Shown piece after piece: positions 12,130 to 43,332 of a stretch of 64,000 nt of DNA (position 1 is the stretch's first letter; every line of letters begins with the position of its first letter). Both the position numbers and the translations under genes were made by a program. Below the pieces are notes generated by a model. That model ran no database searches. It worked only from the letters and a program-made list of their open reading frames with translations, and was not told the DNA's origin. This DNA is from Candidatus Multivoradales bacterium (GTDB lineage: Bacteria > Acidobacteriota > Thermoanaerobaculia > Multivoradales > J023): the NCBI GenBank assembly GCA_965248925.1, contig CBDFLE010000005.1, positions 544,001 to 608,000 on the forward strand. Reading direction: 5' to 3'.

Positions 12130-12274
12130 GAACGGGTTGGAGTAGATCTTGCTCTCACTCTAGCCTGCTCCTAGGCGGTGGTCACCCTGCCTCGGTCGCT
12201 TGGCGTCATCCTACGTTCATCTGCCATCAAATACTCTTGCCACCGTTCAAGGAGTACGCAGTTACCGAGGAACC

Positions 12275-13117
12275 ATGGTGAACGTCGAGCAACCAAAAAA
12301 CGACTCCCCAACGACGCCAAGTCTGCTGTTGGTGGATGACAACCACGACCTGCGACGAGCCACGGCTGAGCTGCTGCGAGCGAAGGGCTGGGAGGTGGTC
12401 GAAGCTGGATCGGCGGAACAAGCTCTGGAGTTAGCCGCTCACCGATCGTTCGCAGTCCTGGTCAGTGATGTCTCGATGCCCGGCATGGACGGTCCCGAGC
12501 TGGTGACTCGTCTACGCCGGCAGCTTCCCGGCCTACGTTGTCTGCTGGTCTCTTCCGCGGAGGGGCGGGCGGATGTAGAGCGCTTGGTGACCCGGCGGGA
12601 GGTGCTATTTCTCGCCAAGCCTTTCTCGGAAGCTCAGCTTTCCCGTTCCCTCCGGCAGCTTCCCTCTGCATCTCCTAAGATTCAATCACGGCGCTATCTG
12701 GCGTTGGCCGCGGTCGCTTTAGTAGCTGCATCCTTGGTCGGCTGGTGGCTACAAATGAGGCCTCCGCCGCTACCCCCGGCAGCTGCTTCCGGGGTGGTTC
12801 GCGGCTCGACTCTTGAGCCAATTCGGCCTCTTGGGGAGCAGATTCAGCCGCCTGACGATCTCGCTTGGCGTGAAGTTGATCTAGCTGCAAGTTACCGTGT
12901 GAGCTTGCGCGAGGTTGACGAGAATCTACTGTGGCAGACGAAAGTAGAGGGTTCGCCTACCGACGTGCCGGCCAAGTTGCGACAAGCGTTGCAACCCGGG
13001 GTTGTTTATTTCTGGCAAGTGGAAGCTCTGGACACGACCGGCGCTCGACTGGCATGGTCCAGTCCGGTGCAATTCCGGATGATCGCGGAGCTGGCCGCAA
13101 TACAAGGTGTTGAGTAG
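12275..13117 (+). CDS. Receiver domain-TM-extracytoplasmic beta-sandwich (FN3/Ig-like) protein
   Basis: REC motifs LLLVDD, VSDVSMPGMDG, LAKPF; TM (YLALAAVALVAASLVGWWL); C-terminus VVRG..LEPIRP...LAW...SYRV...YFWQVEALD. Confidence 0.75.
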   Translation: MVNVEQPKNDSPTTPSLLLVDDNHDLRRATAELLRAKGWEVVEAGSAEQALELAAHRSFAVLVSDVSMPGMDGPELVTRLRRQLPGLRCLLVSSAEGRADVERLVTRREVLFLAKPFSEAQLSRSLRQLPSASPKIQSRRYLALAAVALVAASLVGWWLQMRPPPLPPAAASGVVRGSTLEPIRPLGEQIQPPDDLAWREVDLAASYRVSLREVDENLLWQTKVEGSPTDVPAKLRQALQPGVVYFWQVEALDTTGARLAWSSPVQFRMIAELAAIQGVE

Positions 13118-13144
13118 CGAGGCTTAGGAATTGGAGGACTTGAG

Positions 13145-14182
13145 ATGCTTGAGAGCTACCCTGCAAAGTTGATTCGACGGACTCTGGTGGTCGAGACGAT
13201 GGTCTTCTGCTGGGCCTCGGTGGCCTTCTGCCGGCCAGATCTCACCCTGCGGGTGAATGATACTTCGGTAGACGCCGGTGGTCGGGTGGCGATCGTCTTG
13301 CGCACCTATGCTTCACGGCCAATCGGCCAAGGCCAGCTGTGTTTTCGTAATGCCTTCGTGGCCAACGGTCCCGACCAGCTGCTGGGCAAAGGAATAGGTT
13401 CTCCTTTCGTGGCGCTCGACAGTTTCGTCATCTTCAGTGAGATGGGAGACGTTGTGGCCGAGGCTTCTTTTGACCCGATTACCCAGTTGGTACTGGTTGA
13501 TTTCTCCTCGGTTTCCGCAACTGTCAACAGTGCCGATGGGCCTCTTGGAGTACTCTACTTTCAAGTCGATGGAGGGTTGGTTCCGGACACCGTTTTCAAT
13601 GTGGAGATAGACCCCGACGCCTCTTTCCTGGTTGACGAAGCTGGATTGCCGGTGATCATCAGGCCGCGGTCCGGGGAAATGGATATCCGACCGCTCGGCG
13701 CACCTTACTTGTTGGAAACCGGCGCTGCCGAGGTAGTTCCGGGAGCAGTCGCTTTGCTGAGCGTCGAGACCTCAGAGCTGTTCCCCATTGCAGGCGGCCA
13801 GATCGGCCTCCGCTATCCGGCAGAGATCGCTGGTGGGCCGCCGACGGTCAGTGTCGACCCACGCTACGGCCTGGTCATGGTCGAGACTTCGAGGGCTGAA
13901 CCTGGCCTGCTAGTGATCAATCTTAACTCTCCCGACAGTTCCTACAACGAGGTGCCTGGAGAGATCTTGACCATCGCGCTGCCGATCCGTGGCGATGCTC
14001 CTTTAGGCAATGTCTATCCTCTGACCCTCGATCCGGACTCCACCTTCCTCAGCGGACCGGCAGGAGCACCGATCAGCTTGCAGCTGATGGGCTCAACGGT
14101 CAAAGTGACCGGCCCGCCGGCGCTCTTCACGGATGGTTTTGAAGGTGGCGACTTTGCTGCCTGGTCGGCAGTGCAGCCCTGA
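13145..14182 (+). CDS. Secreted protein with two cohesin-like beta-sandwich repeats and a C-terminal F.DGFE.GD...WS motif
   Basis: Two internal repeats (PIGQGQL...IDPDASFL / PIAGGQI...LDPDSTFL); ends LFTDGFEGGDFAAWSAVQP; GGAGG RBS. Confidence 0.65.
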   Translation: MLESYPAKLIRRTLVVETMVFCWASVAFCRPDLTLRVNDTSVDAGGRVAIVLRTYASRPIGQGQLCFRNAFVANGPDQLLGKGIGSPFVALDSFVIFSEMGDVVAEASFDPITQLVLVDFSSVSATVNSADGPLGVLYFQVDGGLVPDTVFNVEIDPDASFLVDEAGLPVIIRPRSGEMDIRPLGAPYLLETGAAEVVPGAVALLSVETSELFPIAGGQIGLRYPAEIAGGPPTVSVDPRYGLVMVETSRAEPGLLVINLNSPDSSYNEVPGEILTIALPIRGDAPLGNVYPLTLDPDSTFLSGPAGAPISLQLMGSTVKVTGPPALFTDGFEGGDFAAWSAVQP

Positions 14183-14205
14183 CGCGTAGTTCTTGGCGGC
14201 TATGC

Positions 14206-16833
14206 TCAGCCCTTCCGCGGGCGCAGCCACCAGGCGGTGATCGGCAGCAATAGGGCGGCAGCGACCAGCAGCCAGGTCCAGCCCCGCTGGCGCTCGATCA
14301 AGGGGCCAACATCTCCCACCAGCACGTAGGCCGCCCACACTGAGGGGCGGTCCCAATCTGGATCCGAATGCAGGCGTAGCTTGGCTTGGCGAAGCGCATC
14401 CGCGGGTGCCAGGCCGCGGCCGAGGAAGTGATAGAGCTGCTCCATGAACACCGCTGAGCTTTGGTCGTCGACATCCCACAGGGTGGCGATCACGGCTGCC
14501 GATCCTGCTGCCAGGAAGGCGCCGGCGAGGGAGGAGAGGGCTCGGCCTTGGTCGTCGGCAAGGGCTGTTCGGCAGGCCGATAACACGGTCAAGCCAACCG
14601 CCATCTCGAGTCTGGCAATCTCGCGTGGGTAGAGTAGGCCGTCGTTGGCCGAGTCGCTGCCGAGGACGATCGCAGCGCTGCCGCCGGGGCGTTCGTCAAG
14701 CACCGCGTGGCTGGCCAAGTGGAGGATACGTGCCGGCGCAGCGACGGCAGCGCGGAAATACTCCTCGGTCGCGTGCGCGCCAACAGCTAACTCGCTTTCC
14801 CCTGGCCACTGCTCGGCGATGCGTAGCAGCTCGCCCGTTGCTGCTGGTAATGGGGAGAGATGAAAACGCTCGATCAGCAACTCGCGTGGCGTGCCTGGTT
14901 GCTCTGGCAAGTACTCCAATCGGGGATCGGCCAAACCTACCAGGCGGTCGCTGGTTGGGGGTTGCCGGCGACCTAGGGCGGAGGCGCTTGGCAGGTAGCT
15001 GACCACCAGGTGATCGATCAATCGCTGGTCGCCGTGGTCGCCGGTAGGCAGCAGCTCAAAAGGCAGGTAGTGGAGCACTCCGTCGGGGGCAATCTGCAGC
15101 GTGCCCGAAGCCTGGTCAAGGGTAGCCAACGGCGTCAGCAGGATTCTCGATAGCTCGGCTAGAGCCTCCTGCGGCAGCTGCTTGCCAGCTGCCAGGGCGC
15201 GATGAACTTCGCTCACCAGCGTATTGACGGTGGCCGGCGGGCCGAGATCATGGAGTTCGATACGGCCTTCACCGATCTGCCACAGCAGCAGGCTAGAGTC
15301 GGTCAAATAGAGTTCCAAAATGCGGTTGGCAGCAGCCAGCTCGAGCAGCTCGGCGGCGCTTCGCGGAGTTTGGGGCAGATTCCCCGGCGGCTTATCGGCG
15401 GCCTTAGTGAGGTGAGCCAGGGTCTCGATCAGTTCCCTTGCCTTCGCCTGCTGGACAATCTCCAGCGCATGCTCGGCATGGCCAAGGCCGGGTTGCTGGT
15501 GGTCGAGCCGGGCCAGCACCTCAATGGCGGCGCTGTAGACCACTCGCTGGTCGGCAAGAAAAGTCCACCGCAGGTCGTCTTGATCCAGTCTGTCGGCGCC
15601 CAACTTGCTTTGCTGCTGCTCGACCCCGGCGACTGCGCGCAGTAAATGCGGCAATGCCAATCCCAACTTACCGCGGGCCGCCTGCACTAGGCCAAGGCCG
15701 TTTTCGGCTTGCCAGTGGGCGATGGTTGAGGAGTCTTTGGCGGCGGCGAACTGCTGCTGAAACATCTGCTCCGCCTGGTCAAACTGGCCGCGGTCGAGGT
15801 GCAGGCGGCCGAGTTGCCCGAGGCTGCGCAGTTCTTCGGCTTTGGCGCCGCCCTGCCGCGCCGCCTTCAGAGCGCTGCTCAAGGCAAGCTCAGCGTCGTC
15901 CAACCGCGCCAGGTTGAGGTGATAGGCCAGCCCCAGGTTGAGCAGCGCATTGGCTCGACCGCTACCGTCGCCGAGTTGCTGAAAAAGCTCGGCAGCGGCA
16001 GCGAAGGCTGCCACTGCTCGTTGCGGATCGCCGAGATTGCGATAGACCACGCCCAGGTTGACCCGCAGATTGGCGCGGCGGTGGGGCGGCACCCTTGGGT
16101 CGTCGGCGACCGCTCGGCGATACTGCTCGAGCGCCGGTCGGTAGGCACCGGCGAGCTCCAACGCCACCCCCTGGTTGACCCTCGAGATCCAGGCTTGCTC
16201 GGCGGCCCAAGGCTGTTCGGCATGCTGGTCGGCCAGTTGCTCAGCCAGCCGATGGTGGACCAGAGCATCGGTGTAGCGGCCGGCTTCGGTCTCCAATGCC
16301 CCGAGATTGGCCAGGTTGACCACCTCTTGGCCGAGATTGCCTAGCTGGCGGTTGATATTTAATGCCTCGTTGAAGGCTTGACGGCTAGCGGCGAAGTTAC
16401 CCAAGTAACGCTCGCTGAGGCCGAGGTTGTTCAGCACTCGGGCCAGACGGCGGTGATCGCCGAGCTGGCGCCGCAGAGCGAGGGCCTGGCGGCATTCAGC
16501 GACGGCCCGGTGATGGTCGCCGAGGTCGTTGAATACCACGCAGGCGTTGTTCAAGGCCCGAGCGCGCAACTCGGGGTCGGCGCCGGGCTGGCTTGCGGCC
16601 GCGTGGAAGGCCTCGGCAGCCTGCCGCCAGAGTCCTTCGCCATAGAGTCGCCGCGCTGCCTCCAAGTCCTGGGCGGTGAGGGTGGCGGCCAGCAGCCAGC
16701 CGCCGAAAACGAGCAGCCACCAAAGTCGTTGGCGAGGATGGTGTTGGGTCTTCTTACCGCAGGATTTAAGCCGGTACATCTGCAGATCGTACCCTACTCG
16801 GGGCGCCGCCCGGTGGGCGGCGGAGGCGACCAT
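14206..16833 (-). CDS. TPR-CHAT (caspase-like) protease, exported and C-terminally membrane-anchored
   Basis: Hydrophobic signal (LWWLLVFGGWLLAATLTAQ), TPRs, IAPDGVLHYLPFELL, His motif ILHLASHA, Cys motif VLSACRT, VIATLWDVDD, WAAYVLVG, C-terminal TM plus RPRKG; alternative start 16779. Confidence 0.88.
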   Translation of the reverse strand: MVASAAHRAAPRVGYDLQMYRLKSCGKKTQHHPRQRLWWLLVFGGWLLAATLTAQDLEAARRLYGEGLWRQAAEAFHAAASQPGADPELRARALNNACVVFNDLGDHHRAVAECRQALALRRQLGDHRRLARVLNNLGLSERYLGNFAASRQAFNEALNINRQLGNLGQEVVNLANLGALETEAGRYTDALVHHRLAEQLADQHAEQPWAAEQAWISRVNQGVALELAGAYRPALEQYRRAVADDPRVPPHRRANLRVNLGVVYRNLGDPQRAVAAFAAAAELFQQLGDGSGRANALLNLGLAYHLNLARLDDAELALSSALKAARQGGAKAEELRSLGQLGRLHLDRGQFDQAEQMFQQQFAAAKDSSTIAHWQAENGLGLVQAARGKLGLALPHLLRAVAGVEQQQSKLGADRLDQDDLRWTFLADQRVVYSAAIEVLARLDHQQPGLGHAEHALEIVQQAKARELIETLAHLTKAADKPPGNLPQTPRSAAELLELAAANRILELYLTDSSLLLWQIGEGRIELHDLGPPATVNTLVSEVHRALAAGKQLPQEALAELSRILLTPLATLDQASGTLQIAPDGVLHYLPFELLPTGDHGDQRLIDHLVVSYLPSASALGRRQPPTSDRLVGLADPRLEYLPEQPGTPRELLIERFHLSPLPAATGELLRIAEQWPGESELAVGAHATEEYFRAAVAAPARILHLASHAVLDERPGGSAAIVLGSDSANDGLLYPREIARLEMAVGLTVLSACRTALADDQGRALSSLAGAFLAAGSAAVIATLWDVDDQSSAVFMEQLYHFLGRGLAPADALRQAKLRLHSDPDWDRPSVWAAYVLVGDVGPLIERQRGWTWLLVAAALLLPITAWWLRPRKG

Positions 16834-16839
16834 CGGGGG

Positions 16840-18156
16840 CTAACTGCTGGTCTTGAGCGGGAACCGGTCTGGGCGGCCGAAGAGGAACCCCTGGGCGGTT
16901 GGACATCCTGCCGCTTGGATGGTCCGCAGCTCTCTCGGGTTCTCGATACCCTCTGCCACCACCTCCAAGCCCAATCGGTTGCCGAGCGCTACCACCGCTT
17001 CCACAATCGCCAGGCTGGTGTCGTCGGTCACAGCTTGGCTGGTGAATTCTCGCGGGATCTTCACCTTGCGGGCGCGCAGCAGCTTGAGGTACTGCAACGA
17101 GCTGAAGCCGGTGCCGAAATCGTCCAAGGCCAGCTGGATGCCCCGGCGATGCAACCTGGCCAGACCGCTGCCGTGGTCGTCCAGGGAGTCTACGGCCACC
17201 GTTTCGGTGAGCTCGAGCTCCAGCAGGTGCTCCGGCAATCGAGCAGCCTCCAATGCCTTGTCGATGCAGGCAGGAAAAGACGGGTCGGCCAGCTGTAAGG
17301 CGGCGACATTAACCGCGATCAAGGTGTCGTGGGCAATCTGTGAACTCCACCGTTGCCGCCAACGGCAGGCTTCCTTGAGCACCCAGCTGCCGAGATCGCA
17401 GACCAAGCCGGTGGACTCGGCGAGAGGAATGAACTCATTAGGACCCAGCAGTCCGCGGCGCGGGTGAAGCCACCTGATCAGGGCTTCGTACGCCTTGACC
17501 TTCCCGCTCCTGAGATTGATCTGGGGTTGGAAATCCAAGTAGAGCTGACCCTGCTGTAGAGCCCTCTGCAGGGCCTCGAACTCGCTCAGCTCAGCCGCCT
17601 GTCGGGCAGCGGCGCCATCTAGGCAAGAGATTCGTTTACCACTCTGCCGAGCCTGCTCCAGGGCGGTGCGTGCCCGGCCGAGCAGCTCTTCAGCGGCTAC
17701 CCCATGGGTGTGCAAGCTCAAGCCAACCCGGCATGCCTGGCGAGGGTGCTCGGCTCGCTTGCTGATCGAGGTGGCGGCGTCCACTAACTTCTGCGCCAGG
17801 AACAAAGCGCTGAGGGGATCAGCGACCGCCCGCTGCAAGATCGCGAAGCGACCCCGACCGAGATAGGTCCAGGCATCGCAAGAGCGTACCAATTCGGCGA
17901 GCTGCACGGCCACGGCGCGAATCCTCGGTGTCTGGGTTGAGAGGTCCGGTGCCGGGTCGGGGGTAGACTCGACCGATAGCACCTGCACGGCAATCGTTTC
18001 CCCGGTTCGATCCGCTTGAGCGACCGCCTGCCGCAGGCGGTCGGCGAAGCTCGATCCCGCGGCCGCGGGCGCTTGCTCAGCGCCGCGGGGCAGCCGCGCA
18101 TCGAAGGTGGCATGGGCCGAGGAATCGACGGTAGTCAAGGTTTCCAACTCCAACAT
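16840..18156 (-). CDS. Degenerate GGDEF-EAL protein (probable c-di-GMP phosphodiesterase)
   Basis: YEALIRW, FIPLAESTG, AVNV, LELELTE, LDDFGTGFSSL, VVAEGIE, QGFLF; the GGDEF site reads GRGRF. Confidence 0.85.
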   Translation of the reverse strand: MLELETLTTVDSSAHATFDARLPRGAEQAPAAAGSSFADRLRQAVAQADRTGETIAVQVLSVESTPDPAPDLSTQTPRIRAVAVQLAELVRSCDAWTYLGRGRFAILQRAVADPLSALFLAQKLVDAATSISKRAEHPRQACRVGLSLHTHGVAAEELLGRARTALEQARQSGKRISCLDGAAARQAAELSEFEALQRALQQGQLYLDFQPQINLRSGKVKAYEALIRWLHPRRGLLGPNEFIPLAESTGLVCDLGSWVLKEACRWRQRWSSQIAHDTLIAVNVAALQLADPSFPACIDKALEAARLPEHLLELELTETVAVDSLDDHGSGLARLHRRGIQLALDDFGTGFSSLQYLKLLRARKVKIPREFTSQAVTDDTSLAIVEAVVALGNRLGLEVVAEGIENPRELRTIQAAGCPTAQGFLFGRPDRFPLKTSS

Positions 18157-18335: not shown

Positions 18336-20687
18336 TCAAGGACAGGCGCGGAAAGTCGAAGTGTCGAAGATCGGTGCCGCGGCTCCGCTGCCGTTGTCGC
18401 GGTAGATCTTGCGCTGTCCGGTCTCGGTATCTTCGATGGTGACCACGATCGACAAAGTCGTGGTGGCGGCGTAGGACAGCCAGTAGGCGCCGAAGGTCTC
18501 ACAGGCGTCAACCGCCTTGACCAGGAACTCAAAGTTGCTGCGATCGTCGTAGTAGAACAATCCTGACTTGTCCGACAGCACCACTACTTTGGCGTCGCGA
18601 GTAGTGCCGTTCGGGATCGTGTAACGGATGCTCACCCTGAACCGGCCGCTGAGCAGGCAGAGAGTGTTGATACCGGCAGGGCAGTTGGTGTTGTCATCGT
18701 CGGCGATCGTCAGCGTCGCGTTGCCGCGTAGCGGGTCGATGGTGGTGCCACCGGTGGCGCCGCTCAAGCTGAGCTCAATGGTCTCATTGCCCTCGGGGTC
18801 GAGGTCGTCGAGGATTGGCACCAAGAAGGTCCTGTCCGCGCCGTCGCCAGCGGCCCAGCTCAGAGTGCCGCTGACCGCGGTGTAGTCGCTACCGTCGAAG
18901 GCGCTACCGTCGAAGCTCGAATAACTGACCGAAGCGGCGCCGTCCTCGCCCGAAGAGCGCTCGACGGTGATCACCGCCATGCCGGACTGCTCCAAGGCCT
19001 GGTACGCGGCCGAGCTGAATTTGAAGATGCCCGGTGTGCCGCCACCACCACCGCCACCACCGCCACCACCGCCACCACCGCCACCACCGCCACCACCGCC
19101 GCCGGTACCGCCGTCACTGGCCAAGATCACCAGGTCAGCTTCGCCCCGCAAACCGTCGATCACCGCTCCGCCGGTGACGTTGGCCAAGGTGAGATGGACG
19201 GTCTCGGCGCCCTCGGACGCACTATCATCGAGAATCGGTACCGAGAAAGTCTTGTCAGCGCCATCGCCGGCGGCCCAAGTCAGCACGCCGGAGCTTCCCA
19301 GATAGTCGCTGCCGTCGCTGGCACTGCCATCGCTGGTGGAGTACTCAACGCTGACCACGCCGTCCTCGCCCGAGGAGCGCTCGACGGTGATCACCGCCGT
19401 GCCAGCTTCCTCGAGCACTTCGAAACTGATCTCGTCGAACTTGATCACCCCTGGTGTTCCAGTCCCACCGCCACCGCCACCGCCACCGCCACCGGTGCCG
19501 CCATCGTTGGCCAGAATTCGAATCACCGCGGTATCACGTCCGGCCGTGAGGCCAGCACCACCGGTGGGGTTGGACAAGGTCAGTTGCAGGATCTCGTCGC
19601 CTTCCGCCAGCTCGTCTTCGAGGATTGGCACAACAAAAGTCATGTCGGTGCCGTCACCATTGGCCCAGCTCAAGGTGCCGCCGACGCCGGTGTAATCGCT
19701 GCCATCCTCGGCGCTGAGGTCGCTGGTGGTGTAGTCGACGGTGACCGCGCCGGAATCTCCCTGGGAACGCTCGACACGAATGATAGCCACGCCGGCCGAC
19801 TCGAGGACCTCGAAGCTAGCTTCGTCGAATTTCAGGTTGCCGGCAGCGCCGCCACCACCACCACCACCACCACCACCGCCGCCGCCGCCGGTGCCACCAT
19901 CACTGGCCAGGATGACCAAGGTGGAGGTGCCGCGCAGGCCGTCGATGGTAGCGCCGCCAGTAGCGTTGGAGAGCACCATCTCGATGGTCTCGTCGCCTTC
20001 GGCTTCGGCATCGTCGAGGATCGGAACGTTGAAAGTCTTGGCCAGGCCGTCGAGATTGGCCCACATCAAAGTGCCACTGACGGATTGGAAGTCGCTGCCA
20101 TCGATGGCAGAGCCGCCACTGATCGTGTAGTCCACCGAAACCACGCCGGACTCGCCTTGCGAGCGCTCGACTCGGATCACCGCCAGGCCGGCTTCTTCGA
20201 GCACCTCGAAGGTGACCTCGTCGAATTTCAGGTTGCCAGCAGCGCCACCGCCGCCACCGCCGGTGCCGCCATCGCTGGCCAGGATGACCACCACCGAAGT
20301 GCCGCGGCCGGCGCGAATGATTGAGCCGCCGGTGGGGTTGGAGAGTTCCAGATCGATGGTCTCGGCGCCCTCGGCCTCGGCATCGTCGAGAATCGGAATC
20401 TCGACCACCCGGTTGCTTCCGTCTTGATCCCCCCATGACAGCGTGCCCGCGGCGGCCGTGTAGTCGGTGCCTTCGCTGGCGCTGCCGCCAGTCGTCGACC
20501 AGTTGATAGTGACCGCTCCATCTTCACCGCGCGAGCGCTCGATCACCACCAACGCGACGCCGGCCTCTTCGAGTACTTCGGTACTGTCCTCATCAAAGGC
20601 GATCTCGCCGTTGCCGGCGGCTAACAAGGGGGATGCCAAGAGGGCCAGGATCCACCCCAAGACTAGTTTCATGTTGAGTGCTTTCAT
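18336..20687 (-). CDS. Secreted/surface protein with 5 Calx-beta domains, poly-Gly linkers and an LCL..GRF C-terminal domain
   Basis: Signal peptide MKALNMKLVLGWILALLASPLLA; five repeats F....EV.E.AG.A.I.VERS.G...DY....GTL.W..GD....F.VPILDD...EG.E; GGAGG RBS. Confidence 0.88.
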   Translation of the reverse strand: MKALNMKLVLGWILALLASPLLAAGNGEIAFDEDSTEVLEEAGVALVVIERSRGEDGAVTINWSTTGGSASEGTDYTAAAGTLSWGDQDGSNRVVEIPILDDAEAEGAETIDLELSNPTGGSIIRAGRGTSVVVILASDGGTGGGGGGAAGNLKFDEVTFEVLEEAGLAVIRVERSQGESGVVSVDYTISGGSAIDGSDFQSVSGTLMWANLDGLAKTFNVPILDDAEAEGDETIEMVLSNATGGATIDGLRGTSTLVILASDGGTGGGGGGGGGGGGGGAAGNLKFDEASFEVLESAGVAIIRVERSQGDSGAVTVDYTTSDLSAEDGSDYTGVGGTLSWANGDGTDMTFVVPILEDELAEGDEILQLTLSNPTGGAGLTAGRDTAVIRILANDGGTGGGGGGGGGGTGTPGVIKFDEISFEVLEEAGTAVITVERSSGEDGVVSVEYSTSDGSASDGSDYLGSSGVLTWAAGDGADKTFSVPILDDSASEGAETVHLTLANVTGGAVIDGLRGEADLVILASDGGTGGGGGGGGGGGGGGGGGGGGGGTPGIFKFSSAAYQALEQSGMAVITVERSSGEDGAASVSYSSFDGSAFDGSDYTAVSGTLSWAAGDGADRTFLVPILDDLDPEGNETIELSLSGATGGTTIDPLRGNATLTIADDDNTNCPAGINTLCLLSGRFRVSIRYTIPNGTTRDAKVVVLSDKSGLFYYDDRSNFEFLVKAVDACETFGAYWLSYAATTTLSIVVTIEDTETGQRKIYRDNGSGAAAPIFDTSTFRACP
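19039..20262 (-). repeat. Four GGN microsatellite tracts encoding Gly linkers (about 22, 10, 14 and 6 Gly)
   Basis: (CCA/CCG)n runs on the + strand at 19039-19104, 19465-19494, 19849-19890 and 20245-20262. Confidence 0.9.
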
Positions 20688-20966
20688 CTTCGTATCCTCC
20701 ACACTTTGTTGTTCGGAAAAGGCTCGTTCACTTGAACTTTGCCGCTCAACCCGGTTGCGGGCGAAGTGCTGAATGTGGGTGCTGAATGAGCATCGCACTC
20801 GGCAGCAAGCGGCTTGGCATGCTCCAGTTATAGCCAGGCGTGTATGAACGGAACATGACCGAGATAAAGTGCCGAGCGGTAGGGTCCAGCCTGGCTCCGT
20901 GATCCCGATCATTGTTAGGGAGAGCATTCATTTAGCGTTCATGCGCCAATCTGTATACCTCTAAGC

Positions 20967-23183
20967 ATGAACAGCTCGCTCGAAGATTCAACCGCGTTCA
21001 CCAGCCGATCAGAACCTAGCTCGCTAGGGCCGCTAGCCCCACGATTGATTGCCGTGGACTCGGTGAACCGCGTCGGTTCCGACCTGAGTTCTCCTCAGCT
21101 CTACCTCAATCGGGAGCTGACCTGGCTGGCTTTTAACCGCCGCGTGCTGCACGAGGCGCGGGACCCGCAAACACCGCTGCTTGAGAGGGTTAAATTTCTT
21201 AGCATTGTCAGCTCGAACTTGGACGAGTTCTTCATGAAGAGGATCGGCGGCTTGAAGCAGCAAGCCGCCGCGCAGCTGGAGGTGCTGAGCGTCGATGGCC
21301 GGACCCCTCGGCAACAGATCGCCGAGAGCCTGGAAGAAGCCCGCCAGATCCTTGAGGAGCAGCAGGTGGTCTTTGGGACCTTGCTCGGTGAGTTGCAGGC
21401 CAAGGGCATCCGCTTGCGGCGTTACCGAGATCTCGATTCGAAGCTGCGACGAGTAGCTCGTGGCCACTACAAACGACAGGTCCTGCCGCTGATCACGCCG
21501 CTGGGTTTCGATCCCGCTCACCCCTTCCCGGTGCTCTCTAACCGGTCACTGAATCTGCTGGTGGAGCTTCGGGAAAATGCTGACGAGCCTACCTTCCTGG
21601 CGCGGATCAAGGTGCCAGTGAGTGCCAGGACGCCACGTCTTGTCCAGATCGGCAAGCAGCAGCAGTTTGTGTTCCTCGAGGAAGTCATCGCCCACAACCT
21701 GGACTTACTGTTTGGCGACTGCCTGGTCGAGTCCTGCCACGCTTTCCGGGTGATCCGCAATGCATCGACCGAGCGCGACGAAGAGAACGCCGACGATCTG
21801 CTGGCGATGATAGAAGCGGAGCTTCGCGATCGTCGGTTTGCTCCCTTCGTCCGTCTCGAGGTAGCAAAGGAGATGGCCCCGGCCCATCGCCGGCTTCTGG
21901 CCGCTGAGTTGGGGCTCGACTTGGTGTTCGACGTCTTCGAAAATGAGGGCCCGCTGGCGCTGGCGCATTTGCTCGAGCTTGCCAACCTGGATCTTCCACA
22001 GCTTCACTTCTCGCCCCATCGGCCGAGGGTCAACGCCCAGCTGGCCGAGAAACACAACGTATTCGCCGCCATTCGCCGCCATGGCTCGATTCTGCTGCAG
22101 CACCCGCGTGAGTCCTTCGGTGCTTCGGTCGAGCGCTTCGTCGACGAGGCGAGCCGCGATCCAAAAGTGGTGGCGATCAAAGCGACCCTCTATCGCACCT
22201 CGGACGGCACCCGGATTGTCGACAGCCTGGTGCAAGCCGCGCTTGATGGTAAGCAGGTGGCGGTGGCGGTGGAGCTGAAAGCTCGATTCGACGAAGCGGC
22301 CAACGTCCGCTGGGCCCGCCGTCTGGAAGAAGCCGGGGTTCATGTCAGCTACGGCATCGTCGGTCTCAAGACCCACTGCAAGGCATTGCTGGTGGTGCGT
22401 GAGCAGACCGGAGGGCTGACGCGCTACGTTCACATCAGCACCGGCAACTATCATGCAGGCACCGCTCTCGCCTACAGTGATCTGGGGTTGCTGAGTTGCG
22501 ACGAGGAGCTCGGCTGGGACATCGCCGATCTGTTCAATGCGTTGACCACCGGGCGTAACTTGGACCGTCGCTACCGCAAGATCCTGACCGCGCCCAAGGT
22601 GATGAAAGCCCTGCTGCTGGCCAAAATCGAGCGCGAAACCAAGCTCCACAATCCAGCCTCCCCCGGCTTGATCCGCCTCAAGACCAATGCCCTGGAAGAC
22701 CCGGATGTGGTCGCGGCGCTCTACCGGGCCGGCAGAGCCGGGGTGCGGGTCGAGCTGTTTGTGCGCGACACCTGCAGGTTGCGCCCTGGTCTACCAGGAC
22801 TCTCCGAGAGCATTCGGGTATTTAGTATCGTCGGCCGGTTCCTAGAGCATTCGCGGGTCTACCACTTCAGCAATGGTGGGGAAGACGAGTACTTCATCGG
22901 CTCAGCGGATCTGATGCAGCGCAATCTCGAGCACCGAGTGGAGCTGCTGGTGCCAGTGGAGCAGCCGGACCAACGTCAGGTGCTGGAGAAGTTCCTTCGG
23001 GCCTCGCCCGGCAAGGACTGGCGGATTTGGCAGATGCAGTCCGATGGCAGCTACATCGAGCAGCCGGATTCGCCCACCGCGAAAGCACCCGCCGCGAGCT
23101 CGGTCCGCGTCGCGGTAGCAGAAAGCCAATGCGAGGTATTGAGTTGGAGAAAAAATGTTCTGGAGGTGGCGAATGCCTCTTGA
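20967..23183 (+). CDS. ppk1: Polyphosphate kinase 1
   Basis: YLNRELTWLAFNRRVL, SSNLDEFFMKR, HPFP, ELKARFDE, LKTHCK, STGNY, SIVGRFLEHSR, GSADLMQRNL. Confidence 0.95.
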   Translation: MNSSLEDSTAFTSRSEPSSLGPLAPRLIAVDSVNRVGSDLSSPQLYLNRELTWLAFNRRVLHEARDPQTPLLERVKFLSIVSSNLDEFFMKRIGGLKQQAAAQLEVLSVDGRTPRQQIAESLEEARQILEEQQVVFGTLLGELQAKGIRLRRYRDLDSKLRRVARGHYKRQVLPLITPLGFDPAHPFPVLSNRSLNLLVELRENADEPTFLARIKVPVSARTPRLVQIGKQQQFVFLEEVIAHNLDLLFGDCLVESCHAFRVIRNASTERDEENADDLLAMIEAELRDRRFAPFVRLEVAKEMAPAHRRLLAAELGLDLVFDVFENEGPLALAHLLELANLDLPQLHFSPHRPRVNAQLAEKHNVFAAIRRHGSILLQHPRESFGASVERFVDEASRDPKVVAIKATLYRTSDGTRIVDSLVQAALDGKQVAVAVELKARFDEAANVRWARRLEEAGVHVSYGIVGLKTHCKALLVVREQTGGLTRYVHISTGNYHAGTALAYSDLGLLSCDEELGWDIADLFNALTTGRNLDRRYRKILTAPKVMKALLLAKIERETKLHNPASPGLIRLKTNALEDPDVVAALYRAGRAGVRVELFVRDTCRLRPGLPGLSESIRVFSIVGRFLEHSRVYHFSNGGEDEYFIGSADLMQRNLEHRVELLVPVEQPDQRQVLEKFLRASPGKDWRIWQMQSDGSYIEQPDSPTAKAPAASSVRVAVAESQCEVLSWRKNVLEVANAS

Positions 23184-23184
23184 A

Positions 23185-27998: not shown

Positions 27999-28009
27999 CG
28001 CAAACTCCT

Positions 28010-29322: not shown

Positions 29323-29363
29323 ATCGGTTCTCCTCGGTTCTTGATTGCGTTAGCTCAGGGTGA

Positions 29364-31360: not shown

Positions 31361-31457
31361 GGCTAATACCTCGGGTTCTGTGGGTGCAGGTTGCCCTGGT
31401 GGATGTCGGTCTTGGTGTGAGTTCTTTACGTCGGTTCATCGAAAAATGGGCGGCGCC

Positions 31458-31523: not shown

Positions 31524-31532
31524 ATTCTCAGG

Positions 31533-36520: not shown

Positions 36521-36773
36521 TAGGGTCCTCGTTTCAACAGAGGTTGGTGAGTCGGGGGACCCGGAAGTCATTCTTGGCATGAGGGATTCCGGGTCCTCCG
36601 GTTCTTCTTCTGACCGCTGGTCTACGAACTGTGAGCTGCCTGTGCTCTAGGCACCGTGCGCTTTTGGATCGATAGAGCGGCAAGTTAGGCGCAGCGTAGA
36701 AGTACAAAAGTTACAGCCAAATGACAACACTAAAAGCAGAGAGTTTCTCTGTTCTGCAATGAGGGTGGAGCTG

Positions 36774-38614
36774 ATGTCAGATCCTCTCCCGTCGGCACCC
36801 ATCGGCCCGTCCGTGCGGCGCTGGTACGGCGTACCTTGGTTACTGCTCGTCCTGGGACTGCTGTCAGTGGCTCTTCTGGTCGGCACACAGCTTTTTCGCG
36901 AGCGACTGATCGACCCTGACGTCAGCCGCGTTGTTGGCCTGCATGAGATCCTCACCCACTTAACGATCGCTCACCTCTGGGTGGAAGAGTTCGTTACCGG
37001 CGATGAGGTGGCGATGGAGCCGGTGTGGCGAAGTCTTGACGATGCCGAAACGGCGATCGCCCAGCTGCTCGGCCACGGTGCGGTAGCTCGCGGCGCCTTG
37101 CCTCCCCTGTCCGAGCCGTCTCTGGTACTCCAGGCGGAGCGCATTCGGGCGTTGGTAGAGCAGTTCGAAGACATGTCGAAGGACCGTCATGAGGGCTACG
37201 AAGTCGGCAAGCCGGTGGGTATCGGCTCGCAGGTAGATGTTGAATACGATCGCGTCTTTGGCGAAGTCGTCCGGGAGACCGAGAGCTTGGAAGTGGCGCT
37301 CAGCGCCCGCATGGCGCGGAGCTACAGCCGATCGCGTCTGCTGTTTCAGCTGATCTTGCTGGCTTGGGTGACGCTGATCGCCCTGGGTTTCGCCGCCTTG
37401 TGGAGTCGTGAGCGGCGCCGCGCGCGGGCCGAGGAAGCCCTGCGGACCAGCCAAGAGCAGTTGCTGCAGGCGCAGAAGATGCATGCCATCGGCCGGCTCG
37501 CTGGTGGCATGGCGCATGACATCAACAACTACCTCGGAGCGATGACCAGCCAATGTGAGGTGGTGCGTCTACAAGTCGGACCAGACCATCCAACATCGGC
37601 CAAGATGGAGGCGGTGATCGCGACCGCCTTCAAGGCTTCGGGCCTGATTCGGCGCCTGCTCGCCTTCAGCCGGCAGCAGCCCACCTTGCCGGAGGTGGTG
37701 GATCTCAACCAAGTTATCGCCGACCTTGATCGGATGATGCAGCGGCTGCTCGGCGAGGACATCGAAATCAGCTTTCGCCTGGCCGCGGATCTGTGGCCGG
37801 TAGAAGTCGATATCTCGCAGCTGGAGCAGGTGATCGTCAACCTGCTGGTCAACGCCCGCGACGCCATGCCCGGGGGGGCACGATCACCATTGGGACCAGC
37901 AACTGCTCGCCAGCGGAGTTCACCCGCCATCAGCCCTCGCGGTCGATCGGCCAGGATGCGGTGCTGATGTCGGTCCGCGACGAAGGCGGTGGCCTGGATC
38001 CGGCGATTCTCGACAAGATTTTCGAGCCTTTTTTCACCACCAAGAGCGTCAGCCACCAAGGCACCGGCCTCGGGCTGTCGACCGCTTACGGCATAGTCGA
38101 GAGCCACGGTGGCCGGATCTGGGCCGAGAACAACCCTGCCGGCGGCGCCAGGATCGCCCTGGTTGTGCCGCGATCGACCAAGAAACTAGCTTCGTTGCCA
38201 CCGGCCGACAAGTTAGCGCGACCGGTTCCCGAGGGGGCGGCCGAGCGCATCTTGCTGATCGAGGACAATCCTGAGCTGCGCCAATCGACCGCGGCGATTC
38301 TCGAAGCTCTGGGCTACCGGGTCGGTATCGCTGAGCATGGTCGCCAGGCGTTGGCGATGTTCGAAGATCATTGGGGCGACGTGGCAATGGTCATCACTGA
38401 TGTAGTGATGCCAGGGATGAGCGGCAAGGAGATCAGTGATCGCTTGCGCGCTCAGCGGCCAGACTTGGGGGTGTTGTTCGTCTCCGGCTACACCGGTGAT
38501 GTGATGTCCCACCATGGCTTCGATAGCGATCAGGAGGCTTTCCTGGAGAAACCTTTTTCTGCGGTGCAGCTGGCCGCCAAGGTGGCCGCGGTACTACGCC
38601 GCCGCGGCGCTTAA
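36774..38614 (+). CDS. Hybrid sensor histidine kinase (TM-periplasmic sensor-TM-HisKA-HATPase-REC); frameshifted at the G7 run 37872-37878
   Basis: AGGMAHDINN (H-box), [11 protein letters not shown]; the next frame gives [27 protein letters not shown] and REC ITDVVMPGMSG. Confidence 0.85.
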
Positions 38615-38667
38615 TGCCGGCGATTGAATAGCTGCCTTCCTCGCGGGCTCTTGGCAGTGGGGTGGCG

Positions 38668-39579
38668 CTAGGCCAGCAGCTGCTGGAGTGCGGTGCTGAG
38701 AGAGGCGGCGCTGAAGGGCTTGGCAAGAAAGATGCAGCCAGGAGTTGGCGGCGACCTCGCGGGATCGCTGGACAACAACAGACAACGCAGCGCAGGCCGG
38801 GACCGGCGCAGCTGTTCGAGGAGCCCGGCGGGGATCTCGGACCGTTCGCAGAGCAGCACCTCGGCGGGGCTTTCTTCGTCATAGATCAGCTGTAGCAAGG
38901 CGTCGCAGTCGGCCACCGCCTGGACGTTGTAGCCCAGCGCTCGCAAGAGGTCGGCGGTGGCACGGCGCAGGGTAGGGTCGCTGGCCAGCAGCGGCAGCAG
39001 GGCGACCGATTGTGCTTTCTCTTCGGCCTTCGCGGCGGGATGGGGTAGGCCCAGGCGCACCGTCTGCCGCAGTAGCTTCGAGACTTCGTCGATCGATTCG
39101 ATAGCCTGCGCCAGGCGCCGCTCGATCTCGGCATTGCCGGCGTGTTTGATCTGAGTGATCTCACACTGGCCACGGGCTGCCCCGAGGGCATTGTTGGCGG
39201 CGAGGGCGAACTGGCGCGCCTGGCGTCGACCGCTGCCGTCTGCAAGTCTGATCAAGGTTCTGGATGCACCGTCCGGACCGCTACCGAGAGGCCAAATACT
39301 GACATCGAGAATCCGGCGTTGGCCGTCGCTGTCGAGCAATTCGAGTTCGACGCCGACCTTGGAGAGCAGAGTGCGCAGCAGCTTGGGGTCGGTCAAGCCT
39401 GCTTTGCCGAGGCCGCAGCTGCTAGCCAGGGAGAGTTCCGCGAGTTTCTCAGCGGCTCGGTTTTGCCACTGCACCTCGCAGTCAGCACCGACCAAGAGTA
39501 CGGCCTCGGGTAGGCTGTCAAGCAGCTTGCTGAGATTGCTGGCGGATGCTTCGTACCCACCTCTTCGCTGGTCGAACAC
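38668..39579 (-). CDS. PAS-pseudo-HisKA-pseudo-receiver protein (pseudokinase)
   Basis: PAS (LLDSLPEAVLLV...NRAAEKL); DHp-like FALAANNALGAARGQCE lacking His; no HATPase; degenerate REC (LLASD, LLCE, FLAKPF). Confidence 0.7.
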   Translation of the reverse strand: MFDQRRGGYEASASNLSKLLDSLPEAVLLVGADCEVQWQNRAAEKLAELSLASSCGLGKAGLTDPKLLRTLLSKVGVELELLDSDGQRRILDVSIWPLGSGPDGASRTLIRLADGSGRRQARQFALAANNALGAARGQCEITQIKHAGNAEIERRLAQAIESIDEVSKLLRQTVRLGLPHPAAKAEEKAQSVALLPLLASDPTLRRATADLLRALGYNVQAVADCDALLQLIYDEESPAEVLLCERSEIPAGLLEQLRRSRPALRCLLLSSDPARSPPTPGCIFLAKPFSAASLSTALQQLLA

Positions 39580-39717
39580 GGAGCGATCATACCTCAGGGG
39601 CGCGGTTTGCCGAGACCGTCATGAACATGTCATCTGTCACGGGACATACTGCACTCGATCTGGGACCGACTGCTGGCTGCCCGAATTTTGGGCATGCAGG
39701 CCGAGAGGGATGTACTG

Positions 39718-40110
39718 ATGGCTGATTTGAGGACCAGATACCACATCTTGCTGGTGGACGATCATGAGAGCTTTCGCGACGCGACTGCCGAGTTGCTGCG
39801 GCTGCTCGGGCATTGGGTGATTGCTGTGGCCTCGCCGCTAGAGGCACTTGGCCTATGCCAAAGGAAGGCGCAGGTCGAGCTGCTGATCACCGACCTCCGG
39901 ATGCCGCAGATCGATGGCCTGGAACTCGCTAGCCGGGTTTCGGCGCTCCGCCCCGAGGTAGCGGTGTTGCTGATTTCGAGCCACGCCCCCAACGCCGAGG
40001 CCCTGAGCCTAGCCGGCGGGTTTCTGCTCAAGCCGTTCTCGGCTGATACGCTGCAGGCGGAGATAGAGCGGCTACTGGCAACTGGTTCGATCAGCAACGT
40101 TCACTCTTGA
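39718..40110 (+). CDS. Single-domain response regulator (CheY-like)
   Basis: ILLVDDH, LLITDLRMPQIDG, LLISS, LLKPF. Confidence 0.88.
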   Translation: MADLRTRYHILLVDDHESFRDATAELLRLLGHWVIAVASPLEALGLCQRKAQVELLITDLRMPQIDGLELASRVSALRPEVAVLLISSHAPNAEALSLAGGFLLKPFSADTLQAEIERLLATGSISNVHS

Positions 40111-40768
40111 GGACATAGCCTTGGCCACGTACGGTATGCAACAACTTGCCTTCACCCTGGCGATCAATCTTGCGTCGCAGCCGGCAAATCGATACGTCGA
40201 CCGCATTCGCCGTCGAAACGAAAGCACTATCCCAGGCACCGTCCTCGATCTGCTGCCGGCTCAGCACCTGGTCATGGTTCTCCATCAGGTAACAGAGCAA
40301 CGTCAGCTCACGGCGCGAGAGCTGGATGGCCCGGCCAGCCAGGCGCACTTTACCGCTCTTTGGTGCGAGTTCCAGGTCGGCGGCTCGCAGACAGTAGGCG
40401 GTGGCTCTTTCGCGGCGGCGCAACAGGCTGCGCACTCGAGCGAGCAGCTCGGCGAAGGAAAAGGGTTTGACGAGATAGTCGTCAGCGCCAGTGTCGAGAC
40501 CACTGGCGCGTTCTGCAATGGAGTCGCGCCCGGTCAGCATGAGCACTGGCACCCGGCTGCCGGCGGCGCGCCAGGTGGACAGCAGCTCGATGCCGGTGGG
40601 CGGTGGGATCGACCAGTCGAGCACCACCAAGTCGTAGTCGCTGACCGCCATCAATTCGTCGGCATAGCCGCCGGATTCGGCAAGATCGACGGCATACAGA
40701 GCCTCACGCAGGGTATCGCAGATCAACTCCGACATCCGACGATCATCTTCGACGACGAGGATTAACAT
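40091..40768 (-). CDS. OmpR/PhoB-family DNA-binding response regulator
   Basis: LVVEDD, LVVLDW, GADDYLVKPF, wHTH VDVSICRLRRKI...HTVRGQGY. Confidence 0.92.
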   Translation of the reverse strand: MLILVVEDDRRMSELICDTLREALYAVDLAESGGYADELMAVSDYDLVVLDWSIPPPTGIELLSTWRAAGSRVPVLMLTGRDSIAERASGLDTGADDYLVKPFSFAELLARVRSLLRRRERATAYCLRAADLELAPKSGKVRLAGRAIQLSRRELTLLCYLMENHDQVLSRQQIEDGAWDSAFVSTANAVDVSICRLRRKIDRQGEGKLLHTVRGQGYVLKSERC

Positions 40769-40882
40769 GGCGGTTTATCCTATCGCTCTCCGCACTCAAG
40801 CGGAAATCGCGGCTGCCGAAGCTCTGCCACTGCATAACAGGCCCATGCGTCGTAGGCTGTATCACCAGCCGGAGGACAAGCG

Positions 40883-41557
40883 ATGAGACTCTTGGTGGTG
40901 GAAGATGAGCGCGATCTGGCCCAGGTGCTGGTCGAAGCGCTCGAAGAAGAAAGCTATGCCGTGGATCTGGCGCTTACCGGCGAGCAGGCTGACGAACTGT
41001 TCGAGGTCAATGACTACGACCTAGTGGTGCTCGATTGGTCGATCCCACCGCCCACCGGCATCGAGCTGCTAGCCACTTGGCGCGCCGCCGGCCACCAACT
41101 GCCGGTGCTGATGCTGACCGGTCGGCGAGAGATTGAGGACCGAGTCGGCGGTCTCGATAGCGGTGCCGACGACTATTTGACCAAGCCGTTCTCTCTGGTC
41201 GAGCTGCTGGCCCGGGTGCGCAGCCTGATGCGCCGGCGTGACAAGAGCCTGGTGTGTCTGCAAGCTGCGGATCTGACCCTCGATCGGGCAGCCCACACCG
41301 CCCACTTAGGTGGCGTCTTGCTCGATCTAGCACCGAAGGAGTTCGGCTGCTTGGAGTATCTCTTGACCCATCATGACGAGGTGGTGTCGCGAACCACTCT
41401 GGCGGAACATGTGTGGGATGATTCGTTCGATGCGATGAGCAACGTTATCGACGTGATTATCTATCGCCTGCGAAAGAAAATCGATAGTGGCACTGAGCGT
41501 AGGCTGCTGCATACGGTTAAGGGTGTTGGTTACCTATTGAAGAGTGAGCGCGGGTGA
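40883..41557 (+). CDS. OmpR/PhoB-family (CusR/CzcR-like) response regulator
   Basis: LVVEDE, LVVLDW, GADDYLTKPF, SNVIDVIIYRLRKKI...HTVKGVGY. Confidence 0.93.
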   Translation: MRLLVVEDERDLAQVLVEALEEESYAVDLALTGEQADELFEVNDYDLVVLDWSIPPPTGIELLATWRAAGHQLPVLMLTGRREIEDRVGGLDSGADDYLTKPFSLVELLARVRSLMRRRDKSLVCLQAADLTLDRAAHTAHLGGVLLDLAPKEFGCLEYLLTHHDEVVSRTTLAEHVWDDSFDAMSNVIDVIIYRLRKKIDSGTERRLLHTVKGVGYLLKSERG

Positions 41558-43332
41558 GGGAAGCCTCCAGCGGGTCGCTGCGCCCGCTAGTGCTGGTCCT
41601 CGGCGTAGTTGGCCTGGGGCTGATATCGATCCTTCTGCTGATCGGTACCGATCGTCTGCGGCGCCACGGCGAGATGGCTGACCGCACCCTCGCCCTGACT
41701 CTCGCCGACCTACAGCGAGATATCGCTACTTCACATCTGTGGCTTGAAGAGTACGTCAGCGGTGACTCCGTCGACGATGCTGAGATTTTTGATCCTTTGG
41801 TGCTGTCGCTGGCCCGGGTTGATCGCTGGCTCGGCCAATCAACTGGCAGGGCGGTCGACAGCCAGCTGCGGCCCTTCACCGATCGCCGACTGTTGAGCCT
41901 TGCCGGCAACCTGAAGTTCCTCCTCCAGCGCTTTGCCGAGATCGCGGCCAAGCGCCACCGCGGCTTCGTCCAGGGCGAGGAAGTCGGCGTCGGCTCCCCC
42001 CTGGATGTGGAGTACGACCGGGTGTTCGCCGAGCTGCGCAGCGAGGCAGTCGCGCTGGAGCAAGCTCTCGAGCAGCGTCGGCAAAGCGATGCAGCGCGCT
42101 CTAACCGCACCTTCATCGGCATCATTATCGGTTGGGGTCTGTTGCTAGCGTTGGCCGCTACCGGTCTGTGGACTCGAGAGAGGCATCGCCAACAGACCGA
42201 GCTGGCGCTCGGTGACAGCCAAGAGCAGCTCCTCCAGGCACAGAAAATGGAGGCTGTTGGCCGCCTCGCCGATGGGATAGCGCACGATATCAACAACTAC
42301 CTGGCAGCGCTGCGCGGCCAGTGCGAGCTGGTCGCCATGCGCTTTGGCGGCGATCCGCGAATCAGCAGCAAGATGGAAGACTCCATCGGTACCATCCACA
42401 AGGCTTCGGCGCTGATCGATCGCTTGTTGGCTTTCAGTCGTCAGCGGCCGATAGAACCCACGGTGTTGAACCTCAACAGGTTAGTGGAAGGGCTGGGAAA
42501 GATGATGGGCCGTTTGCTGGGCGACGATGTGCGGCTGAAGATGGCGCTCAATCCGGGCTTGTGGAACGTCAGAGCTGATCCGGCTCAGCTCGAGCAAGTG
42601 ATTGTCAACCTGCTGGTCAACGCGCGCGACGCGATGGCGCGAGGCGGTGATCTGGAAGTCGTAACCGAGAACCGACCGACCGCCAGCGGTGACCACGTCG
42701 TGCTAAGCATCACCGACAGCGGTGCCGGTATTGAGCCTGAGATCCGCGACAAGATCTTCGAGCCGTTCTTCACCACCAAGTTGAGTAGCGGATCTAGCGG
42801 TTTGGGCCTGGCGACGGTGTACGGTGTCGTGCAGCGTCACGGTGGCCGCATCGAGGTCGACAGTGAGGTTGGCCGCGGGACGATTTTCGAGATCTTCCTG
42901 CCTCGTACGCTACAGCCGTTGACCGCGGTGGATGACTCTCCGGTGGATGCCGAGCCGCTACAGGGTGCCGGTGAGAGTCTCCTGCTGGTGGATGACAACA
43001 GCAGCTTTCGCCACGCCACCGCCGCCCTACTGGAAGGTCTGGGATACCGTGTCGAGGCAGTAGCAGATGGCGAGCAGGCACTACTCGCTATCGACCGCCT
43101 GGCAGGTCTGCGCTTGGTTCTGACCGACGTAGTGATGCCCGGATTGGATGGCACCGAACTCTTGCGCCAGCTGGATCCGCGCTCTGGTGTGCGGCTGATC
43201 TTCATCTCGGGTCACAGCGCTAGCGAACTCGAGCGCCGCGGTTTTTCCGTCGCTCAAGGACAGCTGCTCAAGAAGCCTTTCTCGGCGGTGGCTTTGGCCC
43301 GGATGGTTCACCAAGCGCTACAAGGTCCCTAG
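41554..43332 (+). CDS. Hybrid sensor histidine kinase (paralogue of 36774..38614)
   Basis: GTGA overlap with the regulator; two TMs; HLWLEEY sensor; [27 protein letters not shown]; [11 protein letters not shown]. Confidence 0.9.

Follow-up and report, generated by a model that had tools for sequence, protein, structure and literature searches.

The closest described counterpart of the locus treated here is the DdvA/DdvS system of Myxococcus xanthus (PMC11506125), where a zinc anti-sigma domain, a transmembrane (TM) helix, a flexible linker and a periplasmic TPR-CHAT protease are combined. The TPR-CHAT part was proposed to be the site-1 protease and RseP the site-2 protease, and RseP degrades DdvA once TPR-CHAT has been removed (PMC11506125). 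The locus itself lies in a stretch of 64,000 nucleotides from a Candidatus Multivoradales bacterium (contig CBDFLE010000005.1, positions 544,001 to 608,000; the whole stretch is called the window below), and encodes P0001, a receiver domain joined by one TM helix and a linker to a fibronectin type III (FN3) domain, followed by a cohesin-like gene (P0004) and, on the other strand, a gene for a TPR-CHAT protease (P0003; Table 1). The locus belongs to a conserved cassette for envelope signalling and has the form with a receiver head. The common form reads extracytoplasmic function (ECF) sigma factor, zinc anti-sigma/TM/FN3 protein and cohesin-like gene, with a convergent TPR-CHAT gene, and its sigma gene looks autoregulated. 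This sigma-type cassette has the elements of DdvA listed above, and the profile of the window CHAT family matches the DdvA structure 8rot (E 8.7e-12). However, anti-sigma factor and protease form a single chain in DdvA, whereas here the protease is a separate exported and C-terminally anchored protein, with the genes on opposite strands; furthermore FN3 ends the presumed substrate, the cassette has a cohesin-like gene in addition, and in the window there is a receiver and no sigma factor.

Which other systems are relevant? CpdR and similar proteins are single-domain response regulators; like them and like CckA-type receivers, P0001 has no output domain and a CckA-like sequence, but its receiver is tethered to the membrane by an anti-sigma-type TM-FN3 tail and is encoded with a protease. 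In the craspase Csx29-Csx30-CASP-sigma (10.1101/2023.06.23.546230) and, reportedly, in SAVED-CHAT/PCaspase a CHAT protease also controls a sigma factor via cleavage of a partner. In contrast to the cassette, both of these are cytoplasmic, RNA- or cyclic oligoadenylate-triggered and CRISPR-linked, without a TM substrate or receiver. Classical regulated intramembrane proteolysis (RIP; RseA/DegS/RseP/ClpXP and RsiW/PrsW/RasP; 10.1101/491043, PMC8767453) shares the single-TM regulator, the Ala-rich TM end and the outer domain and, with the sigma-type form, a dedicated ECF sigma factor and an upstream promoter motif, but here a caspase-like enzyme is the presumed site-1 protease, with a receiver domain as its cargo. 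The ECF54 genes (PMC7826278) also adjoin TPR-CHAT genes, but are actinobacterial, lack an anti-sigma factor and have the promoter GTATCAG/CTCC rather than TGTTCC/CTGTC. No description of the cassette, or of a CHAT-controlled receiver-TM-FN3 protein, was found in a full-text literature search that covered subscription journals thinly; the receiver variant seems to be new, and the surrounding cassette itself seems undescribed.

The reading frame of P0001 is open across 12200..13117; GAGGAACC precedes the ATG at 12275, and the homologue P0002 begins at about the same position. PF00072 matches residues 18-125 (E 2.2e-21), and with the receiver fold come the acidic pocket, phospho-Asp, Ser/Thr and Lys typical of that family, all site residues (D21, D22, D65, S93, K115, P116) being canonical. 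The best NCBIfam matches are to the C-terminal receivers of CckA hybrid-kinase models (E 1.2e-22 and 9e-20; the next is 7e-16), with scores far below the cut-offs set for whole proteins. In the AlphaFold model the receiver is followed by a low-confidence segment, a helix at 137-158 (the TM segment has a mean hydropathy of 2.0), a second low-confidence linker with pLDDT 67-68 across residues 161-180, and a confident beta-sandwich. Because Lys and Arg are commoner before the TM helix than after it in 31 of 35 receiver-type members, the N-terminal receiver is placed in the cytoplasm. The tail just passes the Ig-like model PF25788 (27.7 bits, cut-off 27.4) and, modelled alone (pLDDT 93), has the FN3 beta-sandwich fold, with a best Z of 9.9, rmsd 2.8 and 89 aligned residues, many FN3 entries being tied. 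All this agrees with a first-pass annotation, made from the letters alone, which had seen an intact cytoplasmic receiver, one TM helix and an extracytoplasmic beta-sandwich here, and had proposed the fold comparison. P0001 is not itself a class I (zinc) anti-sigma factor, its head being a receiver with no N-terminal zinc anti-sigma (ZAS) motif HxxxCxxC.

That annotation had also supposed that such a tail often occurs on zf-HC2 anti-sigma factors, and had suggested that the heads be tabulated. When the TM-FN3 part was searched against 50%-identity representatives 1722 proteins matched, of which the best 150 were examined; 45 of these are long multi-repeat FN3 proteins, which served as a control and do not enter the head count. 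The remaining 105 short homologues comprise 33 with a receiver head (a Pfam match for 32 of them), 54 with an HxxxCxxC-type head (PF13490 confirming 38) and 18 that are truncated or short-headed; none has both a receiver and a zinc head. The receiver-TM-FN3 chimera is accordingly a real family, its architecture shared by 33 separate 50%-identity clusters, with a tail common to zinc anti-sigma factors, including the anti-sigma genes of the cassette. A word-seeded search was insensitive here (2 proteins, later 3 long repeat and 20 short ones) and no counts are based on it; an Atlas look-alike, a zf-HC2 cluster at 0.84, is a lead only. The tail tree mixes head types (14 changes against 27.7 when shuffled) and the CHAT tree scatters the receiver-type loci, monophyly of the receiver form is not rejected (approximately unbiased test, p 0.21), and a three-gene tree groups the receiver-type loci with a support of only 34. 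By these trees the receiver form may have arisen once or several times, and head swaps may have run in either direction; from its wider spread (L030, the Atlas zf-HC2 cluster) the sigma form would be ancestral. A sisterhood of the window and L028 (support 86 in one tree) was not reproduced in two later analyses and has been dropped. As to odd members, at L005:3712-4488 sigma region 2 is joined straight to the TM-FN3 tail (P0044 is the same), for which a deletion or an assembly artefact is the probable cause, and L018:9226-14252 is a variant with a different ECF sigma factor, a short non-zinc head, also found in P0101, P0111, P0142, P0160-P0162 and P0164, and the cohesin-like gene upstream of CHAT.

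How widespread is the gene order? One scan of GTDB with the narrow pattern YxW[QRT]VEALD gave 38 loci, of which the 28 strong ones were tabulated and L029-L038 (E 1e-6 or weaker) excluded from locus counts; a CHAT gene is present in L029 and L030, and none in the eight weak FN3 loci L031-L038, which serve as a rough control. Twenty-seven of the strong loci are from Thermoanaerobaculia, Acidobacteria or related groups and one is from Gammaproteobacteria, many being closely related, so that the counts are not independent. Of the 28, 26 have the cohesin-like gene, and a CHAT orthologue is downstream and convergent in 21; of the seven without it, four have a flank of about 10 kb (L003, L017, L020, L025) and three are on contigs that end too soon. 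The window has the TM-linker(R-G/S)-FN3 tail, the adjacent cohesin-like gene and the convergent TPR-CHAT orthologue of the cassette, and L006 and L027 have exactly its order of receiver and cohesin-like genes facing CHAT. At L021 the receiver gene is followed by a short cohesin-like gene at the contig end, the contig stopping 0.8 kb past it. CHAT is present at both receiver-type GTDB loci where it could be assessed (L006, L027), and the zinc anti-sigma genes do occur in groups with ECF sigma and CHAT genes, as had been supposed, these groups having the cohesin-like gene as well. Two further arrangements were seen: unrelated genes are inserted between the cohesin-like and CHAT genes at L002, L007, L024 and L028, and a second ECF sigma and zf-HC2 pair is divergent from CHAT in ten related loci, L004, L008, L010, L013-L016 and L022-L024, and two DUF4252 genes come next in the four of them where this was checked in full or in part.

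One distinctive ECF sigma gene is directly upstream in 23 of the 25 non-receiver strong loci and in none of the three receiver loci, for one of which, L006, the check extends over only about 0.7 kb of upstream sequence. The exceptions among the former are L018, with another ECF, and L011, without upstream sequence, and at L005 the sigma is a fragment fused to the tail. The family is well conserved, with weak Pfam matches in region 4. Ahead of all 23 cassette sigma genes is TGTTCC-N15/16-CTGTC, from its position and bipartite form presumably the ECF promoter; 20 sites were found without a matrix, and the remaining three with one derived from those 20. Extra copies precede Calx-beta genes in L005, L024 and L028, and the motif was not found in the part available of the ECF classification supplement (PMC7826278). 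A matrix scan shows it to be absent from L006, L021, L027 and the entire 64-kb window, and six-frame comparison of the window with an HMM of 34 sigma sequences finds no sigma factor (best E 0.42), in keeping with the first-pass view that a receiver stands in place of the anti-sigma head and that no ECF sigma gene is in the window. Sigma factor, promoter motif and zinc head are thus missing together in the receiver form, and the outer machinery is retained, as is a Calx-beta gene in the window and L006; unrelated ECF genes are 6 kb (L006) and 8 kb (L027) away. A scan for sigma-70 promoters and terminators was at chance level.

The protease P0003 matches PF12770 (E 6e-55), with TPRs in front of a CHAT domain that has the His-Cys dyad, and proteolytic activity is predicted. 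H687 and C736 are invariant in the 19 orthologues aligned, and the dyad is intact in 22 of 22 CHATs, including all three receiver-type ones; a pair of Cys residues, C80 and C96, is also invariant and compatible with a disulfide. Orthologues in the cassettes are 37-48% identical to the window CHAT. Since P0003 has a signal-peptide-like N-terminus and a hydrophobic C-terminal anchor helix about 15 residues past the protease domain, and the receiver is inside, the protease and the FN3 tail should both face the outside of the membrane. No fused ZAS-TM-TPR-CHAT chain was seen among 8000 scored candidates of 343-2000 amino acids, which is weak evidence, and PADLOC gave no defence-system support in the window, with generic partial TPR/BovA matches only for CHAT and no CRISPR or CBASS link. 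The first-pass annotation had the receiver and cohesin-like genes converging on TPR-CHAT, as their positions and strands confirm, and had suggested a prediction of the complex with it. For TPR-CHAT with linker plus FN3 the predicted score is 0.60, against 0.00 for the best of three controls, with contact agreement between runs of at least 83% and partner pLDDT of at least 79. Of solved pairs 116 of 157 attain the mark for this score, and of mismatched pairs 2 of 215; of those that attain it, 18 solved pairs and both mismatched ones lie at or below 0.60. The model lends weak support to binding.

Between membrane and FN3 fold is an Arg, R176 in P0001, whose equivalent is conserved in 105 of 107 homologues (34/35 receiver-type, 54/54 zinc-type) with variable neighbours, 13-20 residues past the TM helix in most members. 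The pair R[GS] is present in 90 of 94 family members; the FN3 fold does not need it, because only 10 of 312 unrelated FN3 repeats of the long proteins have it at the same spacing, and fold matches of the tail mostly start at G177 or later. This makes the linker Arg a candidate cut site. Separases cleave after Arg (PMC11506125) and other bacterial caspase-like proteases are Arg-specific (10.1101/2024.10.24.620036), and by analogy Arg specificity of this CHAT is plausible. At the TM helix, AAA is found in 18 of 35 receiver-type members (mean 9.1 and maximum 17 in 2000 shuffles) and in 42 of 54 zinc-type ones (shuffled mean 14.2), and TM Ala-Ala degrons occur in anti-sigma factors (10.1101/491043). 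The sequence hallmarks that make P0001 a putative RIP substrate are the linker Arg and an Ala-rich TM end, which in P0001 reads LAA.

The reading that we favour, with a probability of roughly one half, is that a cut in the linker by CHAT leads to intramembrane proteolysis, whereupon the membrane-bound receiver is either removed or set free and a phosphorelay loses its brake. The first-pass annotation had proposed that CHAT cleaves or binds the outer domain and so releases or regulates a membrane-tethered receiver, or else that phosphorylation signals inside-out; it is partly supported, since the two observations that it had named as speaking against it, a tail unlike those of CHAT-associated anti-sigma factors and receiver-type homologues without CHAT genes, were looked for and not borne out. 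An outside signal, perhaps sensed with the cohesin-like protein, would activate the anchored TPR-CHAT protein, which would bind the FN3 domain and, as site-1 protease, cut after R176 some 16 residues outside the membrane; cleavage within the TM helix by an RseP-type protease would come next, perhaps leaving an exposed Ala-Ala end to ClpXP. For as long as it is tethered, the output-less receiver would act as a brake, like the anti-sigma factor in whose place it stands, by draining phosphate from, or occupying, a membrane-bound hybrid kinase that matches it in receiver subfamily; once the receiver was removed or released, phosphorelay flux would change with the double-negative logic known for anti-sigma factors. 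The receiver is probably a phosphate sink for a hybrid kinase, and this brake or sink role is the weakest step of the mechanism. A stronger version, in which RIP was rewired from transcription to phosphorelay, an exported Arg-specific CHAT cuts a tethered receiver that is the 'anti-kinase' (phosphate sink or competitor) of a CckA-type hybrid kinase, destruction of this receiver by site-1, site-2 and Clp proteolysis is the switch, and the head selects the output, is less likely than not.

Which kinase might be involved? One family of hybrid kinases, which have an extracytoplasmic sensor region, carries receivers similar to the heads; two of its members are 20-27 kb from the window CHAT and one is directly upstream of CHAT in the sigma-type L028; a window kinase and that of L028 are 46% identical over 497 amino acids, sensor region included. 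Helix 1 of receivers carries kinase-specificity residues, and a helix-1 pattern, defined after the data had been seen, is present in 18 of 35 heads, in three kinases of the family and in the stand-alone receiver of the window, and in none of 10 other receivers (4 of 14 with those of the kinases and the stand-alone one counted in). The window hybrid kinases are a lead as cognate partners of the P0001 receiver. Sensorless CckA-like kinases near L022-L024 were considered and rejected, being without the helix-1 signature.

Several points weigh against the proposed clipping and release of a phosphorelay brake, among them the after-the-fact definition of that helix-1 pattern. The receiver loci L006, L021 and L027 share no conserved neighbouring kinase family; L006 has an unrelated GAF kinase/NtrC pair near the receiver, and none was seen at L021 or L027. 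The receiver-form neighbourhoods are the window and those three loci, CHAT being present at only two of the three (L006, L027). Only 22 of 35 receiver heads have a fully canonical site, the other 13 being non-canonical, and phosphorylation is therefore not essential in every member. L027, though receiver-type, is without R[GS] at the expected place, and the four sigma-type loci L003, L017, L020 and L025, each with some 10 kb of sequence downstream, have kept the Arg without CHAT. P0001 has LAA rather than AAA at its TM end, and AAA is also in 9 of 22 CHAT anchor helices and 11 of 84 other hydrophobic segments. Craspases cleave after Met or Leu, so that CHAT specificity is not generally for Arg, and for DdvA CHAT activity was never triggered (both PMC11506125).

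Could the information run the other way? Phosphorylation at D65 might alter dimerization, and TM-FN3, as the output, might activate, inhibit or feed CHAT, which would process surface proteins (the cohesin-like or Calx-beta ones). The receiver-first architecture with no other output domain, the absence of sigma gene and promoter, the canonical site of 22 heads and the weak 0.60 complex would suit this, but we consider it unlikely: zinc anti-sigma proteins, in which the signal has to pass inwards, carry the same tail, the Arg and Ala-rich TM end are retained in receiver-type members, and 13 heads have a non-canonical site. The intact dyad of all 22 orthologues, the situation of the Arg in a low-confidence linker outside the fold, and the excess of TM AAA over shuffled expectation make it likewise unlikely that TPR-CHAT and the cohesin-like protein are a non-proteolytic co-receptor that binds FN3, with the Arg as a binding residue and a conformational signal as in co-component systems such as VtrA/VtrC, even if the weak complex prediction, the lack of signal-induced CHAT activity for DdvA (PMC11506125) and the tighter linkage of the cohesin-like gene (26/28) than of CHAT (21/28) fit it. 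That the head is a phosphorylation-independent binding cap, or a leftover of fusion after sigma loss, with an incidental two-component coupling, would accommodate the 13 non-canonical heads, the want of a conserved kinase neighbour and trees compatible with one or several origins, but is improbable given 33 separate clusters sharing the architecture, phospho-Asp kept in 27 and Lys in 30 of 35 heads, and partner genes intact in L006, L027 and the window.

If CHAT clipping does control a tethered receiver, what follows? The receiver form suggests that extracytoplasmic cutting may switch a phosphorelay instead of transcription. Within the literature searched, it would be the first two-component receiver to be controlled as cargo by a proteolysis module of the anti-sigma type. 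It would also be a clear case in nature of ECF and two-component outputs being exchanged, the cassette being a plug-in sensor with a cytoplasmic head, anti-sigma or receiver, that chooses the output. Periplasmic TPR-CHAT proteases are common and little understood, and for DdvA trigger and cut are unshown; the cassette provides a stand-alone protease, a candidate substrate with a near-invariant Arg and, in the sigma form, a predicted promoter as reporter, whereby CHAT-driven site-1 proteolysis becomes directly testable.

Table 1. Features discussed, with positions in the 64-kb window
Feature	Position	Strand	Basis or remark
P0001, receiver-TM-linker-FN3 protein	12275..13117	+	280 aa; Pfam, structure model, fold match, family search
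CckA-type receiver domain, ~aa 15-128	12317..12658	+	PF00072; NCBIfam CckA models; canonical D21/D22/D65/S93/K115
Single TM helix, ~aa 141-158	12695..12748	+	Ala-rich cytoplasmic end: LAA in P0001, AAA in many homologues
R176-G177, candidate site-1 cleavage site	12800..12805	+	low-confidence juxtamembrane linker just ahead of FN3 fold
Extracytoplasmic FN3 beta-sandwich	12803..13084	+	Pfam, model, fold matches
P0004, two cohesin-like domains, probably secreted	13145..14182	+	conserved cassette member; 26/28 strong loci, alignment
P0003, exported, C-terminally anchored TPR-CHAT protease	14206..16833	-	PF12770 + TPRs; residues numbered from ATG 16779
P0003 H687, catalytic dyad His	~14719-14721	-	
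P0003 C736, catalytic dyad Cys	~14572-14574	-	
Degenerate GGDEF + EAL phosphodiesterase	16840..18156	-	6 bp upstream of first CHAT ATG; window-specific, probably not core
Calx-beta repeat surface protein	18336..20927	-	PF03160; accessory cassette gene
Signalling cluster, distant	36759..43332	+	includes the candidate cognate kinases; link to the cassette tentative
Hybrid kinase, split over two frames	36759-38614	+	break near eight consecutive G at ~37870, perhaps from a sequencing indel
Stand-alone receiver	39688-40110	+	same distant cluster
Second hybrid kinase	41554-43332	+	same distant cluster

P0004 had been called a secreted cohesin-like protein; the gene is present after P0001 as a member of the cassette, its secretion is probable, and its cohesin identity is likely, not proven. 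No Pfam or NCBIfam family matches it, its Atlas look-alikes at 0.94-0.95 belong to clusters of whose members only 13-25% have PF00963, and its family profile matches cohesin structures weakly (E 0.1-0.6). At its C-terminus (~14135-14179) is a short acidic/aromatic tail, absent in nearly all orthologues, which may resemble a surface-sorting motif.

The EAL gene was considered as a conserved output and rejected, as it is beside CHAT only in the window. The Calx-beta gene has homologues in L005 (48% over 485 amino acids), L006, L024 and L028, and in the sigma-type version is likely a sigma target. Near the hybrid kinases, at 38668-39579 on the minus strand, is a PAS-like protein with a terminal pseudo-receiver that is without an acidic pocket and groups loosely with the P0001 receiver. 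Comparison of the window with plasmids gave no match. Between a polyphosphate kinase gene and a DUF3616 gene, ahead of a phosphate porin, a PycTM-domain protein is encoded at 23155-23976, with no cyclase seen beside it. Genes for multicopper oxidase, SCO1 and cytochrome c are at 26796-36580 of the window and at L021:3855-8131, i.e., near two of the four receiver-type loci, a proximity that, with only one similar SCO1 pair (39%), is probably coincidence.

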